From IMG/VR virus record IMGVR_UViG_2872698443_000008: a stretch of 42,559 bases of DNA; one strand, given 5' to 3'. Origin of the DNA: a virus. Lineage: Duplodnaviria > Heunggongvirae > Uroviricota > Caudoviricetes. The translations under genes and the position numbers were made by a program. The number at the start of each line of letters is the position of its first letter. Within the stretch, counting starts at the first letter, position 1. Below the pieces are notes generated by a model. That model made no database searches. It was not told where the DNA came from and saw only the letters and a program-made list of their open reading frames with translations. Shown one piece after another: positions 24,135 through 41,101 of the stretch.

Positions 24135-24634
24135 GATTCGATGATTTTCAGAAACGGGTTAGTAGCTTTCTTCTGCCCCGCCAGGCCAATCAGACGCTGG
24201 CGGCTGCTGGGGTCGAGTCCGAGCATTGCCCCCGTGCTGCTCATCTCGGACTCCTGTTCTTTTTTGGCGGTCAGCTCAGGATTTTTGACCATACCGCCCA
24301 TTGCACCGGTGATGGTGTTGCCCTGTCTGGCAATATTTTTCACGGCACGTCGCCAGAACTCATAGGCCACACACCACCGCTCAAGCACCGCGAGGTCAGT
24401 CACGCACAGCAGGCCCTGACCGCAAAGTTCTTTAGTTGTCAATTGCCACATGATCGTGGCGAGAGGGAGATCTTCTTCAGCGAACCACTCCGGTGGCTCA
24501 ACACCTTTGATGGGCGTAAAAACAGGTTCATCTTTATTCAGGGCTCGCTTGCCGGGGTTTCCGGCCAGCGCCTTGCGCGCCGTTGGCTTGGGGCGACGCC
24601 CGGAACGCCCCGCCGTTCCAGCCATATGCGGCAC
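24131..24634 (-). CDS. Terminase small subunit
   Basis: 167 aa, basic N-terminus, ATGA overlap with the large subunit gene. Confidence 0.8.
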
Positions 24635-24675
24635 TCCTGGTTAAATTTCATTTTTCGCGGGTATAAAAAAACGAT

Positions 24676-24724
24676 GGGGCGGGCAGTCCGGAAGACGTCA
24701 GGTCACAGGGATTTGACCCGCCCC
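24676..24724. promoter_or_regulatory. GC-rich palindrome between HNH and terminase small subunit (candidate cos/packaging site)
   Basis: GGGGCGGG (24676-24683) ... CCCGCCCC (24717-24724) perfect 8-bp inverted arms around a 33-bp spacer. Confidence 0.3.
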
Positions 24725-24750
24725 TCCCCTCTGGCAGTGGGAACTGGTTC

Positions 24751-25101
24751 TTACTTAATCCGTTCACGGGCCGTCTTCGCCTTATGACACGGCCAGCACA
24801 GACTCTGTAGGTTACTGTCTGCATCGGTGCCGCCATGCGCTTTAGGGATGATGTGGTCAACGGTTTTCGCCTCGCGCACCACACCGGCACGCAGGCACAA
24901 CTGGCACAGGCCTTTGTCACGCTTCAGCACACGCGCGCGGATAACGTCCCACTTCGAACCATAACCGCGCTGATGACGGGACTGGCCAGACTTGTATTGC
25001 TTCCAGCCTTCGCTTTTGTGGCTTTCGCAGTAGCCTGATGGGTCAGTCGTGGTATGGCGGCAGCCGCGAACGCGGCAGGCTTTTGGGGTTCGTGGAGGCA
25101 T
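24751..25101 (-). CDS. HNH endonuclease (terminase-associated)
   Basis: 116 aa, Cys-rich with ...VDHIIPKAHGGTDADSNLQSLCWPCHKAKT... HNH motif. Confidence 0.85.
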   Translation of the reverse strand: MPPRTPKACRVRGCRHTTTDPSGYCESHKSEGWKQYKSGQSRHQRGYGSKWDVIRARVLKRDKGLCQLCLRAGVVREAKTVDHIIPKAHGGTDADSNLQSLCWPCHKAKTARERIK

Positions 25102-25228
25102 CTATTATCCCTGTAGTTTTCGTTAAATATCTAACCATAACTGCAATCAGAAACCGCTTTAACACGGTTTGCTAAATAGACTTTTCAATCCAATGAATAA
25201 ACGGCAAGTAAATACCAATCGTTCATTT

Positions 25229-25675
25229 TCATTTGAATACAAACTGTTCTGAAAGAATATTATGACAAATATATTTCGCCTGAATACTATTATCTCTCAT
25301 TCTAATATATTCTTTGTGGGCAACAGATAAAGAACGACAACCGCTGTTTACACGTGGGTATTTTTCCAACATATGTTCGCATATCAAAAAAGCATTATTA
25401 ATAGCATTTAATTTATGGCTTAACTCTCGTAGCTCGGCCCTTTTTTCAATACGAACATTACGACTAAGAGATAAAGGTAGCTGTGATAATGCATTTGAAT
25501 AATCAGCCACTGCCATTTTCAGAGCCATTTTGGCCTTCAGAGCCTCCTGTCGCCGCCAAACATTCATTGCCCAAAAACCTAATGTAACAGTTACAATTGA
25601 ACCTAAAGCCGATACAGCTGACCACACAGTTCCCCAAGGCCAGTTAAGTAATGTATGCCACATCATAACCTCCAC
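25229..25675 (-). CDS. Low-GC membrane-anchored hypothetical protein (moron)
   Basis: 148 aa; N-terminal hydrophobic helix WGTVWSAVSALGSIVTVTLGFWAMNVW; AT-rich, with a 350-bp AT-rich upstream region. Confidence 0.5.
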   Translation of the reverse strand: MEVMMWHTLLNWPWGTVWSAVSALGSIVTVTLGFWAMNVWRRQEALKAKMALKMAVADYSNALSQLPLSLSRNVRIEKRAELRELSHKLNAINNAFLICEHMLEKYPRVNSGCRSLSVAHKEYIRMRDNSIQAKYICHNILSEQFVFK

Positions 25676-26031
25676 TGAATGAAAAGGTTAGTTTATCGTA
25701 AGTGAACATCACTGGCACTATCTAAAGATTAGCTGCTCTACTAGTTGTACTCTCGATAATCTAAACAAAATGATACGTAATAAACCTGTTCATGACTAGC
25801 TCTACTAGACACATGTTTAATCATCTACAAACGATTTGTACAAACTTCCACTTTCATATTGGTCCAAAATGTTGGACTAATAGTTAATCACGATGCATAT
25901 TTTATGTAAGCTGCTACATTACACTATAAAAACGCTGGCGTCTGAATTTAAGCCCATAAGTTTTATAAAATTATCATAATACACAGCTTTATTAGGCGCA
26001 TTCGCACTGATAATGAAAAATATAACTCGAG

Positions 26032-26304
26032 CTATTTGTCTTTCGAATGCAAAATAGCGCGCCGTGATTCAATCTTTCTGATTCCAGTTTTATCAAAATT
26101 ACATTGTCCCAAGGCTGACAATAGAGCAACATTCAACTCCAGACTGGTACCATACGTCAGCGGATTGGGTATAAACGGTACAGGAGTATCAGAAGTCAGG
26201 CTGGCTGGCAGTGGTGCCACCGGAGCGCTCACGTAAACCGTTCGCGAATTTCCGCAACCGGTCAGCAGCGGCAGCAGGCACAGGACGTGAAGCACAATCA
26301 TCAT
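26032..26304 (-). CDS. Rz1-like outer-membrane spanin (lipoprotein)
   Basis: Internal start MMIVLHVLCLLPLLTGC (lipobox LTGC), overlapping the Rz gene out of frame. Confidence 0.6.
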   Translation of the reverse strand: MMIVLHVLCLLPLLTGCGNSRTVYVSAPVAPLPASLTSDTPVPFIPNPLTYGTSLELNVALLSALGQCNFDKTGIRKIESRRAILHSKDK

Positions 26305-26581
26305 CCGCAACAGCCACTTTGATATCTTCCTGGGTTCTCTGTGACTCCAGTGCGATCTGCTGTTTTGCATGCTGGTTAACCTCTATAACTGTATTGACGA
26401 TTTGCAGTGATTGCAGGACGTTACGGGTAATGGCTGTTGCAGATTCAACATTTTGTACAGCCTCATCAGCACGTTTCTTTTCGTGCTGATATTTGCTGTA
26501 GTAGTGGTTGGCAGACCAGATGAAAGAACCGATGACAGTAAAGAAGAATGCAGCGATAACCAGCTTATAGCTCAACTTCAT
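26189..26581 (-). CDS. Rz-like inner-membrane spanin
   Basis: 130 aa, N-terminal TM then coiled region; follows endolysin. Confidence 0.7.
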   Translation of the reverse strand: MKLSYKLVIAAFFFTVIGSFIWSANHYYSKYQHEKKRADEAVQNVESATAITRNVLQSLQIVNTVIEVNQHAKQQIALESQRTQEDIKVAVADDDCASRPVPAAAADRLRKFANGLRERSGGTTASQPDF

Positions 26582-27456: not shown

Positions 27457-28509
27457 TTATTTCCCCACCAGTTCACTTACCTCTTTCACCGTCTGATTAA
27501 ACCGCTCTGACTCAAGTTCAACACCTAACGCCCGACGCCCCAGCGCCATTGCCGCTTTTATTGTGGAACCGGATCCCATAAAGAAATCAGCAACCAGATC
27601 GCCTTGTCGACTACTGGCACTGATTATTTGCCGGAGCATATCCGCAGGCTTCTCACACGGATGTTTACCCGGGTAGAACTGAACGGGTTTATGCGTCCAG
27701 ACGTCGGTATAAGGCACGGAAACTGATACGGAGAAATAGCGCCGGAGAGTTTTAAACTCATCCAGCAATTCATAATATTTGCGATTCAGTGAATCATAAG
27801 ATGCCACCAGCTGGTGGTGTGGTTGTTCCAGTTGTTGTTCCTGAAACTTCTCTGCCGCTATACGGGAAAACAGTGCCTGCAACTTCCGGTAGTCAGCCTC
27901 ATTCGGCAACTGCCACTGACTGGCACCAAACCAGTGGGAAACCATATTTTTCTTACCAGTGGCTTCGGCAATCTGTTTTGCCGTTATACCCAGTTCGGCA
28001 CGAGCATCCCTGAAATACGATATCAGCGGTGCCATTATGTGCTGTTTGAGTTCCCTTTCTTTTGCCGCATAGCCGTCACTTTTGCCGCGATATGGCCCCT
28101 GGTAATGTTCAGCAAACAGAACGCGCTCTGTGGCAGGAAAATATGCGCGCAGACTTTCTTTATTACACCCATTCCAACGTCCGGACGGCTTCGCCCAGAT
28201 GATATGGTTAAGCACGTTGAAACGTTCACGCATCATGATCTCAATATCAGATGCCAGGCGATGCCCACAGAACAGGTAAAGGCTTCCGGCAGGTTTCAAC
28301 ACCCGCCAGAACTGGGCCAGACAGTGGTCCAGCCACTTAAGGTAATCTTCGTCCCCTTTCCACTGATTGTCCCAGCCGTTGGGTTTCACCTTGAAGTAAG
28401 GCGGATCGGTAACAATCAGGTCAATGGAATCATCAGGCAGGGACTGAATAAAATGCAGGCAATCAGCGTTGATTAAATCAACACTGTTTATTTTTACAGT
28501 ATTTTTCAT
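27457..28509 (-). CDS. DNA methyltransferase (DPPY motif, N6A/N4C class)
   Basis: 350 aa; LIVTDPPYF near N-terminus, FMGSGST near C-terminus; no adjacent endonuclease. Confidence 0.85.
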   Translation of the reverse strand: MKNTVKINSVDLINADCLHFIQSLPDDSIDLIVTDPPYFKVKPNGWDNQWKGDEDYLKWLDHCLAQFWRVLKPAGSLYLFCGHRLASDIEIMMRERFNVLNHIIWAKPSGRWNGCNKESLRAYFPATERVLFAEHYQGPYRGKSDGYAAKERELKQHIMAPLISYFRDARAELGITAKQIAEATGKKNMVSHWFGASQWQLPNEADYRKLQALFSRIAAEKFQEQQLEQPHHQLVASYDSLNRKYYELLDEFKTLRRYFSVSVSVPYTDVWTHKPVQFYPGKHPCEKPADMLRQIISASSRQGDLVADFFMGSGSTIKAAMALGRRALGVELESERFNQTVKEVSELVGK

Positions 28510-30216: not shown

Positions 30217-30609
30217 TCAATCTTTAATTTCGGGGTCCATCTCTAGACTAATTTCCAGCATCGATAGGCAGCCATCAATAAACCCCTCAGCCATCTGTAT
30301 CTCAATGCGTATTAGTTTCTCATCCTTTTTACGAGCCTTGGCGAGCTTTCTTTTAGAGATACCGTATAGGTAATGGGCAACAAGAAGCGAATGTTCGTCC
30401 GGCCTTTTTTGCCTTAGACGAGCAAGACAACCTTCAATAATTAATGCATCACTATCTGAACATGCCTGACGTGTTTTGCTTGTATAGGGAAGAAGCCCTT
30501 TAAACCCAGCAGCTATAGGAGAATAGTCTACTCCTGAACTATCACTCGCCGCCCATGCTCCCCAACGATCCAGAACCATTTGAATATCACGCATCAACTT
30601 TCTCCACAA
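30217..30609 (-). CDS. Late-gene antiterminator Q (phage 82/21 type)
   Basis: MRDIQMVLDRWGAWAASDSSGVDYSPIAAGFKGLL... resembles Q-family N-termini; true start may be the Met 5 codons in. Confidence 0.7.
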   Translation of the reverse strand: MWRKLMRDIQMVLDRWGAWAASDSSGVDYSPIAAGFKGLLPYTSKTRQACSDSDALIIEGCLARLRQKRPDEHSLLVAHYLYGISKRKLAKARKKDEKLIRIEIQMAEGFIDGCLSMLEISLEMDPEIKD

Positions 30610-36450: not shown

Positions 36451-37125
36451 ATGAAAACAATCCATGACATCCGGCGGTCTAACGCCAGAAAACTGAGAGA
36501 TGGTGTTGGCGGGAATTCTTCCTTTGCCACTATGATTGATCGCGAGCCAACCCAGACCAGCAGGTTTATGGGAGATGGTGCTACTAAAAATATCGGTGAC
36601 AGCATGGCACGACACATCGAAAAATGTTTCGACCTGCCTGTCGGATGGCTCGATCAAGAACACCAGACAACGAACATCACAAAAAAACCTGATGTTTCAA
36701 TCACTAATAAACAAATCACATTAGTCCCTGTCATATCATGGGTACAGGCCGGAGCATGGAAAGAAGTTGGATATTCTGAGGTTGATTTGAGCACAGCAGA
36801 AACGTATCCCTGCCCTGTACCCTGTGGGGAAATGACTTATATCTTGCGGGTGATAGGTGATTCAATGATTGATGAGTACCGCCCGGGAGACATGATTTTT
36901 GTCGATCCTGAAGTACCTGCCTGCCACGGTGACGACGTTATTGCATTGATGCACGATACAGGCGAAACCACCTTCAAAAGGTTGATAGAAGATGGGACAC
37001 AGCGTTATCTCAAAGCGTTAAACCCAAACTGGCCTGAGCCTTACATTAAGATCAACGGTAATTGCTCTATAATTGGTACAGTGATTTTCTCAGGAAAACC
37101 AAGAAGATACAAAATCAAAGCCTAA
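36451..37125 (+). CDS. CI-like repressor with S24 (LexA-type) autocleavage domain
   Basis: 224 aa; C-terminal ...RVIGDSMIDEYRPGDMIFVD...TTFKRL... (Ser/Lys dyad context). Confidence 0.8.
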   Translation: MKTIHDIRRSNARKLRDGVGGNSSFATMIDREPTQTSRFMGDGATKNIGDSMARHIEKCFDLPVGWLDQEHQTTNITKKPDVSITNKQITLVPVISWVQAGAWKEVGYSEVDLSTAETYPCPVPCGEMTYILRVIGDSMIDEYRPGDMIFVDPEVPACHGDDVIALMHDTGETTFKRLIEDGTQRYLKALNPNWPEPYIKINGNCSIIGTVIFSGKPRRYKIKA

Positions 37126-39711: not shown

Positions 39712-40061
39712 TGGAGCCATACAGCCTCACACTCGATGAGGCCTGTCATTTTCTCAAGATATCCAGACCGACTGCCATTAACTGGATACGCACAGGGCGT
39801 CTTCAGGCAACACGTAAAGATCCCACTAAGAATAAATCTCCTTACCTCACAACACGACAAGCCTGCATTGCGGCTCTTCAGTCTCCGCTGCATACTGTCC
39901 AGGTGAGCGCGGGTGATGGCATAACAGAGGAAAGAAAATGTCACTCTTCCGCAGAGGTGAAATATGGTACGCCAGTTTCACATTGCCGAACGGTAAAAGA
40001 TTTAAACAGTCTCTTGGAACAAAGGACAAAAGGCAGGCGACAGAACTCCATGACAAGCTAA
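39711..40061 (+). CDS. xis: Excisionase (AlpA/Xis-type HTH)
   Basis: Start at [36 protein letters not shown]; 116 aa frame overlapping the integrase start by about 120 nt. Confidence 0.7.
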
Positions 40062-41101
40062 AGGCTGAAGCATGGCGGGTCAGCAAACTTGGTGAAATAC
40101 CTGATATAACGTTCGAGGAAGCTTGTGTCAGGTGGCTTGAAGAGAAAGCACATAAAAAATCACTGGACGATGACAAAAGCCGGATCGGATTCTGGCTTCA
40201 ACATTTCGCAGGAATGCAACTAAGAGACATTACTGAATCAAAAATTTATTCAGCAATGCAGAAAATGACGAACCGGCGTCATGAGGAAAACTGGAAACTC
40301 AGGGCAGAAGCATGCAGAAAAAAAGGGAAACCTGTTCCAGAATACACGCCAAAACCAGCGTCCGTTGCAACGAAGGCTACGCATCTTTCATTTATAAAGG
40401 CCCTACTAAGAGCCGCAGAGCGTGAATGGAAAATGCTGGATAAGGCACCAATTATTAAAGTGCCTCAACCAAAGAATAAACGGATCCGCTGGCTGGAGCC
40501 CCATGAAGCACAAAGGCTGATTGATGAATGTCCGGAGCCATTAAAGTCTGTTGTTGAATTTGCACTGGCAACAGGCTTAAGACGCTCGAACATCATCAAC
40601 CTTGAATGGCAACAAATAGATATGCAGCGCCGGGTGGCATGGATAAACCCGGAAGAGAGTAAATCAAACCGCGCAATTGGCGTTGCGCTGAATGATACTG
40701 CATGTCGCGTATTGAAAAAACAAATCGGGAATCATCACCGTTGGGTATTTGTGTACAAGGAAAGCTGTACCAAACCAGACGGAACGAAAGCGCCAACAGT
40801 AAGGAAGATGCGGTATGACGCAAACACAGCCTGGAAAGCGGCGCTGAGACGGGCTGGTATTGATGATTTCAGATTTCACGACTTGAGACACACCTGGGCA
40901 AGTTGGCTGGTTCAAGCCGGAGTCCCGTTGTCAGTGTTACAGGAAATGGGAGGCTGGGAGTCTATCGAAATGGTTCGTCGATATGCTCACCTTGCACCTA
41001 ATCACCTTACCGAACACGCACGGCAAATAGACTCGATCCTGAACCCATCGGTCCCAAATTTGTCCCAGTCAAAAAATAAGGAAGGTACTAATGATGTGTA
41101 A
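39938..41101 (+). CDS. int: Tyrosine integrase (P22 Int type, thrW-specific)
   Basis: 387 aa, [40 protein letters not shown]...; catalytic region ...[20 protein letters not shown]...VRRYAHL; ends 15 nt from the tRNA. Confidence 0.95.

Follow-up and report, generated by a model that had tools for sequence, protein, structure and literature searches.

The window analysed here, i.e. the whole stretch of 42,559 nt of IMG/VR record IMGVR_UViG_2872698443_000008, comes from an HK97/P27-type lambdoid prophage of E. coli, the late genes of which lie on the minus strand. Between the stop codon of the o-spanin gene Rz1 and the start codon of an HNH endonuclease gene, this prophage carries an AT-rich cargo island of ~930 bp (25102..26031), as delimited by the GC profile and by an empty site. 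The sole credible open reading frame (ORF) of the island is a minus-strand gene (25229..25663, stop codon included) for a 144-aa protein of the family PHROG 6169, identified by profile match, by the starts of its homologues, by dN/dS and by an AF2 model. Gene and leader form a self-contained moron cassette, which runs in the direction of the late operon and fits precisely into the gap from the Rz1 stop to the HNH start. It is very probable that the ORF represents a genuine gene under selection and the island a mobile cassette.

A moron cassette between Rz1 and HNH

On the lysis side, the Rz1/LysC o-spanin gene is intact (26032..26301, minus strand; Pfam LysC, E 9e-15, together with the RefSeq annotation and the empty-site alignment), its stop codon being the edge of the island. 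On the other side, the HNH endonuclease gene (24751..25101, minus strand; Pfam HNH, E 2e-16) belongs to an HNH/P27-terminase packaging module, and the ~15 nt of island beside it are the HNH ribosome-binding region, common to the empty site. The empty site itself is found in E. coli strain 1500, in whose collinear prophage just 26 bp separate the Rz1 stop from the HNH ATG; homology with the window picks up again at the stop codon of Rz1 on one side and the ribosome-binding site of HNH on the other. The GC content is 0.31-0.40 over 25100-26100, versus 0.55-0.60 on the head/packaging side and 0.45-0.55 on the lysis side, which bears out the foreign composition pointed out in the initial annotation. 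Moreover, the family gene has a low GC content (0.34-0.43) in all 13 contexts checked. Two marks of a moron in the sense of Juhala and Hendrix, namely presence or absence at an exact junction of collinear genomes and a deviant base composition, are therefore found at this site.

Out of 5426 complete E. coli genomes, 28 were found to carry the island, and related HNH, TerS or lysis flanks are present in ~1437 genomes. NCTC11129 and FORC_081 have an island with 100% identity. The junction between Rz1 stop and HNH start in E. coli P27/HK97-type prophages is a moron/cargo hotspot (L021-L024), at which other prophages have a gene of the GrlR family, a DUF6236 gene or two hypothetical genes on the opposite strand. 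In AH65-type prophages the same gene, HNH and ~230 bp of the DNA ahead of the gene are combined with a different lysis cassette, with a GH19 endolysin and other holins. The accessory gene (moron) proposed initially is well supported by the empty site, the alternative cargo, the low GC in every context and a conserved leader of its own. As a separate observation, in E. coli strain 1506 (L002) the IS5-family element ISKpn26 adjoins the island inside the upstream spacer, at the equivalent of window position ~25741, and the gene, HNH and the entire head-ward part of the prophage are absent.

The wider family was followed in nine contexts with Pfam-annotated neighbours and, by means of a screen with reference proteins, in additional loci of viral, metagenomic and genomic origin. 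All recognised neighbours share their strand with the family gene, which is usually placed past the lysis cassette and ahead of the packaging genes. The associated holins are of lambda-S, S21, holin_8 and holin_3_7 types, the endolysins belong to GH24, GH19 and GH108, and packaging relies on Nu1/GpA, HNH plus P27 TerS, or Terminase_2 systems. A 138-aa subfamily lies 1-67 bp after TerL, ahead of the portal gene, in CobraSix-type phages, which are temperate lambdoids with integrase, excisionase and Q (Enterobacter phage CobraSix, L004/L102, 1740-2156; similar in L054, L057, L061, L076 and L092). Furthermore, seven loci have two tandem diverged paralogues, each with its own -10-like box and leader complementary to the Shine-Dalgarno (SD) sequence: L051, L052, L053, L078, L082 and L098 (3932-4438 and 4558-5010), and L059 (3379-3897 and 3983-4429). 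A homologue with 32% identity is found in the conjugative-plasmid accessory region of the Salmonella IncX plasmid pSTY1 (L005, 4989-5420), between dinQ and a SLATT-domain gene. A scan of genome contigs gave one locus only.

Most prophages that share the Rz, Rz1 and endolysin genes lack the family gene, and no conserved partner gene was found across the contexts examined. The variety of lysis and packaging modules, together with the absence of a partner, argues for an autonomous single-gene module and not for a cassette-specific lysis accessory. The initial annotation had named a conserved lysis accessory protein as the finding that would speak against it; what was found is a gene that accompanies five or more types of holin or endolysin, is lacking in the majority of prophages that share these flanks, follows TerL in CobraSix-type phages and has a copy on an IncX plasmid. 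The cassette has been shown to travel as a unit, consisting of a proximal leader of ~50-65 nt and the gene, and in many relatives also a terminator, and to move among lambdoid phages with differing lysis and packaging modules.

As regards the 3' end, a structured region follows the stop codon (25135..25228, minus strand; -23.9 kcal/mol, z = -2.67 against shuffles). The 94 nt from the gene stop to the HNH ribosome-binding site form three hairpins, none with a U-tract; one of these, AAACCG...CGGUUU at 25151-25170, is for this reason not a canonical terminator, and a terminator scan of the window on the strand of the gene found none. Stem-plus-U6 terminators follow the gene in the relatives L007, L020 and L004. 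In L004 and L057 the canonical TAGAAT/CCUCC leader is lacking, and the terminator 3' of the gene in L004 is canonical.

Elsewhere in the window, the prophage has a Q antiterminator (30217-30609), a CI-like repressor (36451-37125) and an integrase (39938-41101). The late genes are headed by a DNA methylase gene, followed by holin, GH24 endolysin, Rz and Rz1, and past Rz1 the order on the minus strand is HNH, P27-type TerS (Pfam Terminase_4) and TerL. The methylase gene (27457-28509, minus strand), for an N6/N4 DNA methyltransferase, fills the slot between Q and holin, where its 3' end overlaps with the longest ORF of the holin. This slot is taken by KwaA (L013) or an Abi_alpha protein (L015) in relatives, and in E. 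coli strain 1506 the methylase is a pseudogene.

The PHROG 6169 protein

In its longest reading the ORF runs from a GTG codon (25229-25675, minus strand, 148 aa), the form described in the initial annotation as a low-GC ORF with an N-terminal transmembrane (TM) helix; the ORF and the hydrophobic segment stand, and the start has been moved. In-frame alternatives upstream are ATG 25666 and GTG 25675. Since GTG 25675 falls within the SD sequence GGAGG (25673-25669), MWQ or MWH opens the homologues and the RefSeq annotation has 144 or 145 aa, the true start is, judging from the sequence, almost certainly ATG 25663, giving 144 aa. The product has 16.7 kDa and a pI of 9.8, and dN/dS across genera is 0.05-0.24.

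The protein family is not new as such: it is listed as PHROG 6169 (unknown function), comes mainly from Enterobacterales and has no characterised member. The match is full length (E 3.3e-57; residues 7-148 of the 148-aa reading on profile positions 2-164 of 165). There are 22 close clusters among 5.8 billion sequences, and an exhaustive profile search through 1.84 billion proteins gave just 67 representatives below an E of 1e-3, with lengths of 137-195 aa. Close relatives (60-70% identity, 145 aa) come from Escherichia, Salmonella, Hafnia and Enterobacter. The homology and structure search proposed in the initial annotation returned PHROG 6169 only and, in PDB and fold searches, generic four-helix bundles. 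No Pfam, NCBIfam or PADLOC-DB v2 match was found for the window protein, and PADLOC over 35 family members gave just three single-member matches, at E 0.007 or weaker. A search of the literature and of supplements with the accession numbers and the PHROG identifier also gave no match.

The AF2 model (pLDDT 84) is all-helical, with a helix over residues 11-61 followed by a bundle, in a four-helix arrangement. The protein has a single hydrophobic segment, the residues of which are kept in the family; it corresponds to residues ~10-35 (codons at 25559..25636, minus strand), with Kyte-Doolittle windows of 1.3-1.5 and a composition rich in Gly, Ala, Ser and Thr. No charge precedes this helix, which is followed by WRRQEALKAK, and the 21 residues from its C-terminal end onward (35-55) contain 5 K/R versus 2 D/E. 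Moreover, the net charge of the N-terminal stub is 0 to -3 in 34 of 35 aligned members (+1 in the other). On the grounds of the uncharged stub, the K/R cluster after the helix and the stub charge throughout the family, the protein is likely to be anchored in the inner membrane in an N-out/C-in topology, with the four-helix bundle in the cytoplasm. Judging from its face of small residues, the TM helix may pack against another helix, be it a second copy of its own or one of a host membrane protein. The best-conserved part of the family comprises the TM and juxtamembrane regions (W..Q-E-.-L-K-A-K..F-K), and the charge of the C-terminal bundle varies among members (pI 5.4-9.8).

Three further assignments were tried and rejected. 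A zinc site (C96, C110, H117 and C134) is kept in close homologues and not across the wider family, so that no metal site is assumed. Homology to Tai (TaiEcA) gave a BLASTP E of 0.11 over 20 residues and an hhalign probability of 0.1%. Finally, a paralogue of the i-spanin gave an hhalign probability of 0.3% against the Rz of the window, and the predicted N-out/C-in topology differs from that of i-spanins (N-in, with a periplasmic C-domain); no lysis family of PHROG or Pfam matched the protein. With regard to natural variants, the E. coli AH65 copy (L003, 4128-4583) has a 7-residue duplication within the TM helix (SALGSVV-SALGSIL) and several non-conservative changes in the N-terminal stub, the remainder being nearly unchanged.

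The proximal leader and the distal spacer

The informative cis-acting element of the cassette is the proximal 50 nt, which the initial annotation had overlooked in favour of two direct repeats further upstream; the repeats are noise. Conservation of these ~50 nt ahead of the start codon is seen in the DNA itself, including cases in which protein identity is no more than 29-39%. In the window, this family-specific leader (25661..25711, minus strand; covariance model 37.7 bits, E 0.0013) consists of a -10-like box, an anti-SD arm, a loop, the SD sequence and the start codon, the typical form being GGTAGAAT-AACCTCC-TTAAATCA-AGGAGGTT-(N3-5)-ATG. Within 605 kb of phage DNA, the covariance model matched only upstream of family genes, so that the motif was found ahead of no moron outside the family.

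The -10-like hexamer of the window, TAAACT (25690..25695, minus strand; family consensus TA(A/G)AAT), lies 17 nt downstream of a -35-like hexamer read from the sequence as GTGCCA (25713..25718, minus strand), and in the closest groups the -35-like element is GTGCC(A/T) or GTGCTT. Among 32 distinct leaders, the first and last T of the -10-like hexamer are invariant, and A2, A4 and A5 are present in at least 90%, which is the signature of a sigma-70 -10 element (-12T/-11A/-7T). The hexamer typically starts 31-32 nt ahead of the start codon and is directly followed by an arm complementary to the SD sequence, at +2 to +8 in most of 38 leaders. In the window this arm is AACCTTTT (25689-25682, minus strand), and the SD sequence GGAGG (25669..25673, minus strand), kept family-wide, is located 5 nt ahead of ATG 25663. 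Fold prediction gives a hairpin over 25666..25690 (minus strand), in which the anti-SD arm UAACCUUU (25690-25683) pairs with the SD region GGAGGUUA (25673-25666), the window variant pairing CCUUUU with GGAGG.

Pairing of this kind is predicted for the family as well. The probability that the SD sequence pairs upstream has a median of 0.98 in the family versus 0.53 in 145 strong-SD control genes of the same loci (Mann-Whitney P = 7e-12), although the leaders are phylogenetically related and the P values given here and below overstate their independence. In register, 80-86% of cells are paired, versus 36-67% with the partner slid. The leader of a typical relative, L016, folds at -15.3 kcal/mol (z = -4.6), and distant members keep an SD hairpin with other arms (AUCCUUU/AAAGGAU in L013, GCCUC/GAGGC in L057 and UCACC/GGUGA in L062). 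By pairing of the anti-SD arm with GGAGG, the leader probably restrains translation in the family and, with less confidence, in the window.

It is also possible, by analogy with IS10/IS50, that only part of the transcripts is subject to this restraint. The arm sits at the discriminator and expected transcription start, from the 2nd to the 8th nt after the -10 box. RNA from the cassette's own promoter would then be devoid of the arm and translatable in the lysogen; late read-through RNA from Rz1, antiterminated by Q, would contain it, fold back and be poorly translated. Translation would in this way be confined to the lysogen and the carrier phage spared during lytic growth. The predicted SD pairing has a median of 0.94 in read-through RNA versus 0.51 in RNA starting 7 nt past the hexamer (Wilcoxon P = 6e-10, n = 38). 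This escape of own-start RNA is the more tentative part of the proposal, and would be less probable than the restraint itself.

Several observations on the leader have to be set on the other side of the balance, in addition to the relatedness of the leaders. The hairpin folds weakly in the window (-7 kcal/mol, z = -0.9). Formal covariation does not exceed that of shuffles, which is attributed to the sequence conservation of both arms, the 3' arm being the SD sequence itself. The promoter-like site of the window, GTGCCA-N17-TAAACT, is likewise weak (8/12 matches) and below the threshold of the consensus scan; promoters of the family match the consensus moderately, and such matches are no commoner than in shuffles. 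In the 'TAGAAT' subgroup, the conservation of TAnAAT may partly reflect RNA pairing with the spacer between SD and AUG. As to the independent regulation suggested at the outset, it is plausible in view of the family-wide TAnAAT -10-like pattern, but finds little in the consensus match of the window copy.

The same 'TAGAAT' subgroup (L088, L069, L068 and similar leaders, ~-45 to +10) has a further peculiarity: the upstream GTTTGCCA pairs with TGGCAAAC in codons 1-3, in a predicted stem of 81 nt (-27 kcal/mol) that buries the SD sequence together with the start codon and codons 1-3. Members without TGGCAA in the coding sequence still keep the upstream GCCAGGG block.

Beyond the leader, the ~350 bp of AT-rich upstream DNA recognised initially do exist, as 356 bp without a credible ORF and with a GC content of ~0.33-0.34. 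Their distal part (25720..26031) is confined to the E. coli lineage; cassettes from other genera lack it, and their intergenic spacing goes down to 79 bp. These distal 312 bp diverge faster than the gene and, occurring only together with it, were discarded as an independent element; no Rfam match was found anywhere in 24600-26400. The 290 bp of distal upstream DNA look like a poorly conserved spacer.

This bears on the view that the direct repeats and the 350-bp upstream region constitute an array (of operators or iterons, for example) through which the gene is regulated. The repeats are real, GCTCTACTAG being present twice upstream of the gene in two exact 10-nt copies 64 nt apart (25735-25744 and 25799-25808, 1-2 nt from the positions first given), but they are at chance level and unconserved: when the 356-nt spacer is shuffled with its dinucleotides preserved, 12% of the shuffles contain an exact 10-mer repeat, and for the 930-nt island the figure is 54%. 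Furthermore, in three variant lineages the copies are mutated (one copy in L3Cip3 and SW070919, both in AH65, at 5/20 positions), a 23-bp deletion nearby is tolerated in SW070919, and the homologous cassettes of other genera do without the distal region altogether. An array of this kind is accordingly regarded as highly improbable. A perfect hairpin of the distal spacer, GTCCAACATTTTGGAC (25877-25862, minus strand; GTCCAA-CATT-TTGGAC), was also rejected as unsupported: AH65 has a compensatory double change (GCCCAA/TTGGGC), and one pair is broken in both L3Cip3 and SW070919.

Function, related systems and significance

The likelihoods attached below to the functional readings are the authors' own estimates; they sum to about nine tenths, and that given above for the repeat array overlaps with them. 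The overall best explanation is that of an independently mobile, translationally restrained accessory gene, including the membrane protein, the leader switch and an anti-phage role, and for this combination as a whole belief and doubt are evenly balanced. Taken separately, the role of a prophage-expressed single-gene factor at the inner membrane, acting in superinfection exclusion, abortive infection or otherwise against phages, is the leading candidate, although it falls somewhat short of an even chance. It is suggested by the hotspot address, the autonomy of the single gene and the membrane anchor with its packing face, as well as by a membrane-proximal module that is conserved and a distal domain that varies, by the paralogues in tandem and by the neighbourhood of conflict-system genes around the plasmid copy. 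An immunity hotspot has been published for the slot ahead of the packaging genes (PMC11364771). The support for this role is circumstantial. Against it, no homology to a characterised exclusion or defence protein was found in PADLOC, Pfam or NCBIfam, the PDB and fold matches being generic four-helix bundles, and the strict co-orientation with the late operon, together with the placement 1-67 bp after TerL, fits a late-expressed function equally well.

Such a late-expressed accessory, made from the Q-dependent transcript and acting in lysis timing, late membrane events or exclusion during lytic growth, would have a leader hairpin that merely sets a low translation rate. The constant co-orientation, commonly directly after the spanin genes, and the post-TerL position in CobraSix-type phages are in its favour, as are a membrane protein with a TM helix rich in small residues, the lack of a canonical terminator in the window and the weak promoter consensus there. 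It is nevertheless considered unlikely, given that the gene is seen with lambda-S, S21-type and holin_8/holin_3_7 holins, with GH24, GH19 and GH108 endolysins and with three terminase systems, that it is lacking in most prophages with near-identical flanks (28 of ~1437 genomes with related flanks have it) and the empty site is intact, and that it has no similarity to Rz, a copy on a plasmid and canonical terminators after the gene in several relatives. More improbable still is a special case of defence, in which a membrane toxin or abortive-infection effector would be kept translationally silent in the manner of type I toxins, to be translated only upon processing, a temperature shift or a phage-induced trigger. 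Most members do sequester the SD sequence strongly, one subgroup burying the start codon and three codons as well; the TM face is glycine-zipper-like, the plasmid copy adjoins dinQ and the SLATT gene, and the CCUUUU/GGAGG pairing of the window resembles a fourU thermometer. However, 144 aa with a folded soluble domain are far above the size of type I toxins, there is neither a conserved antisense RNA or partner gene nor an Rfam match, and the window hairpin is too weak for full silencing.

Lambda bor occupies the right-end moron slot of a lambdoid genome, and a factor of lysogenic conversion that serves the fitness of the host and has nothing to do with phages (in colonisation, envelope stress or tolerance of antibiotics, comparable to the Bor and Lom morons in host interaction) would be at home in this classic slot, with carrier strains coming from many hosts and sources. 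On the other hand, most of the protein is predicted to lie in the cytoplasm and not at the surface, the family is nearly confined to phage late regions, and tandem diversified paralogues would better fit an arms-race gene; a fitness factor is rated as improbable as the silent toxin.

The comparison with known systems places the element among the lambdoid morons (the HK97/HK022 concept of Juhala and Hendrix; lambda bor, HK97 gp15), with which it shares the condition of an extra gene that is present or absent, the deviant composition, a promoter-like element, a terminator in relatives and a recombination hotspot in the late operon. It departs from them in the weak promoter match of the window copy and its lack of a canonical terminator, and the family is unrelated to bor, lom and the named moron products. 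HK97 gp15, taken as a comparison, is an inner-membrane superinfection-exclusion protein. The same holds for the phage-encoded SieA of P22 (PMC10883804). Like these two and T4 Imm, which also acts in superinfection exclusion at the inner membrane, the window product is a small protein of an accessory gene with a predicted inner-membrane anchor; unlike them, it has the bulk of its protein predicted in the cytoplasm, and it forms a separate PHROG, with no sequence or profile similarity to them detected. Tai (phi80 orf63; PMC11364771) also occupies a slot upstream of the genes for packaging and must likewise spare the lytic cycle of its carrier, but it has ~204 aa and is antisense to the late operon, whereas the window gene encodes 144 aa, is membrane-anchored and co-oriented, and has no homology to it.

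For the leader, the closest parallel is the fold-back inhibition of IS10/IS50 transposase translation from read-through RNA, reportedly described by Davis, Simons and Kleckner in 1985 and by Schulz and Reznikoff in 1991. In both cases the stretch able to pair with the ribosome-binding site is located at the predicted own start or shortly upstream of it, so that only external RNAs would form the inhibitory hairpin; here, however, the element is a phage moron and not an insertion sequence, and its start is predicted from sequence. Leaders that sequester the SD sequence are also known in type I toxin mRNAs (hok, tisB, dinQ) and in fourU/ROSE RNA thermometers. The likeness consists in a local hairpin that occludes the SD sequence of a membrane-protein gene, with a U-run pairing with GGAGG in the window. 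Type I toxins, by contrast, are hydrophobic peptides of less than ~60 aa with a cis-antisense RNA, whereas the window product is a folded protein of 144 aa without antisense RNA or processing signal. The element is a moron, of a known kind, and the leader architecture is, as far as found, apparently undescribed for morons, no such description having been met with in the literature.

Prophage morons are a main reservoir of undiscovered exclusion and defence functions, and PHROG 6169, with its fixed lambdoid address and single-gene architecture, is cheap to test. Its leader offers a falsifiable answer to the question of how a co-oriented moron in a strong late operon escapes lytic over-production. 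Even without an anti-phage role, a real conserved cassette has been told from an uninformative repeat, and the Rz1/HNH cargo hotspot has been mapped. The most far-reaching proposal, which is rather doubtful at present, is that PHROG 6169 constitutes a new inner-membrane anti-phage or exclusion family with a promoter-embedded anti-SD switch; if true, this switch would shield the lytic cycle of the carrier phage from its own defence gene.

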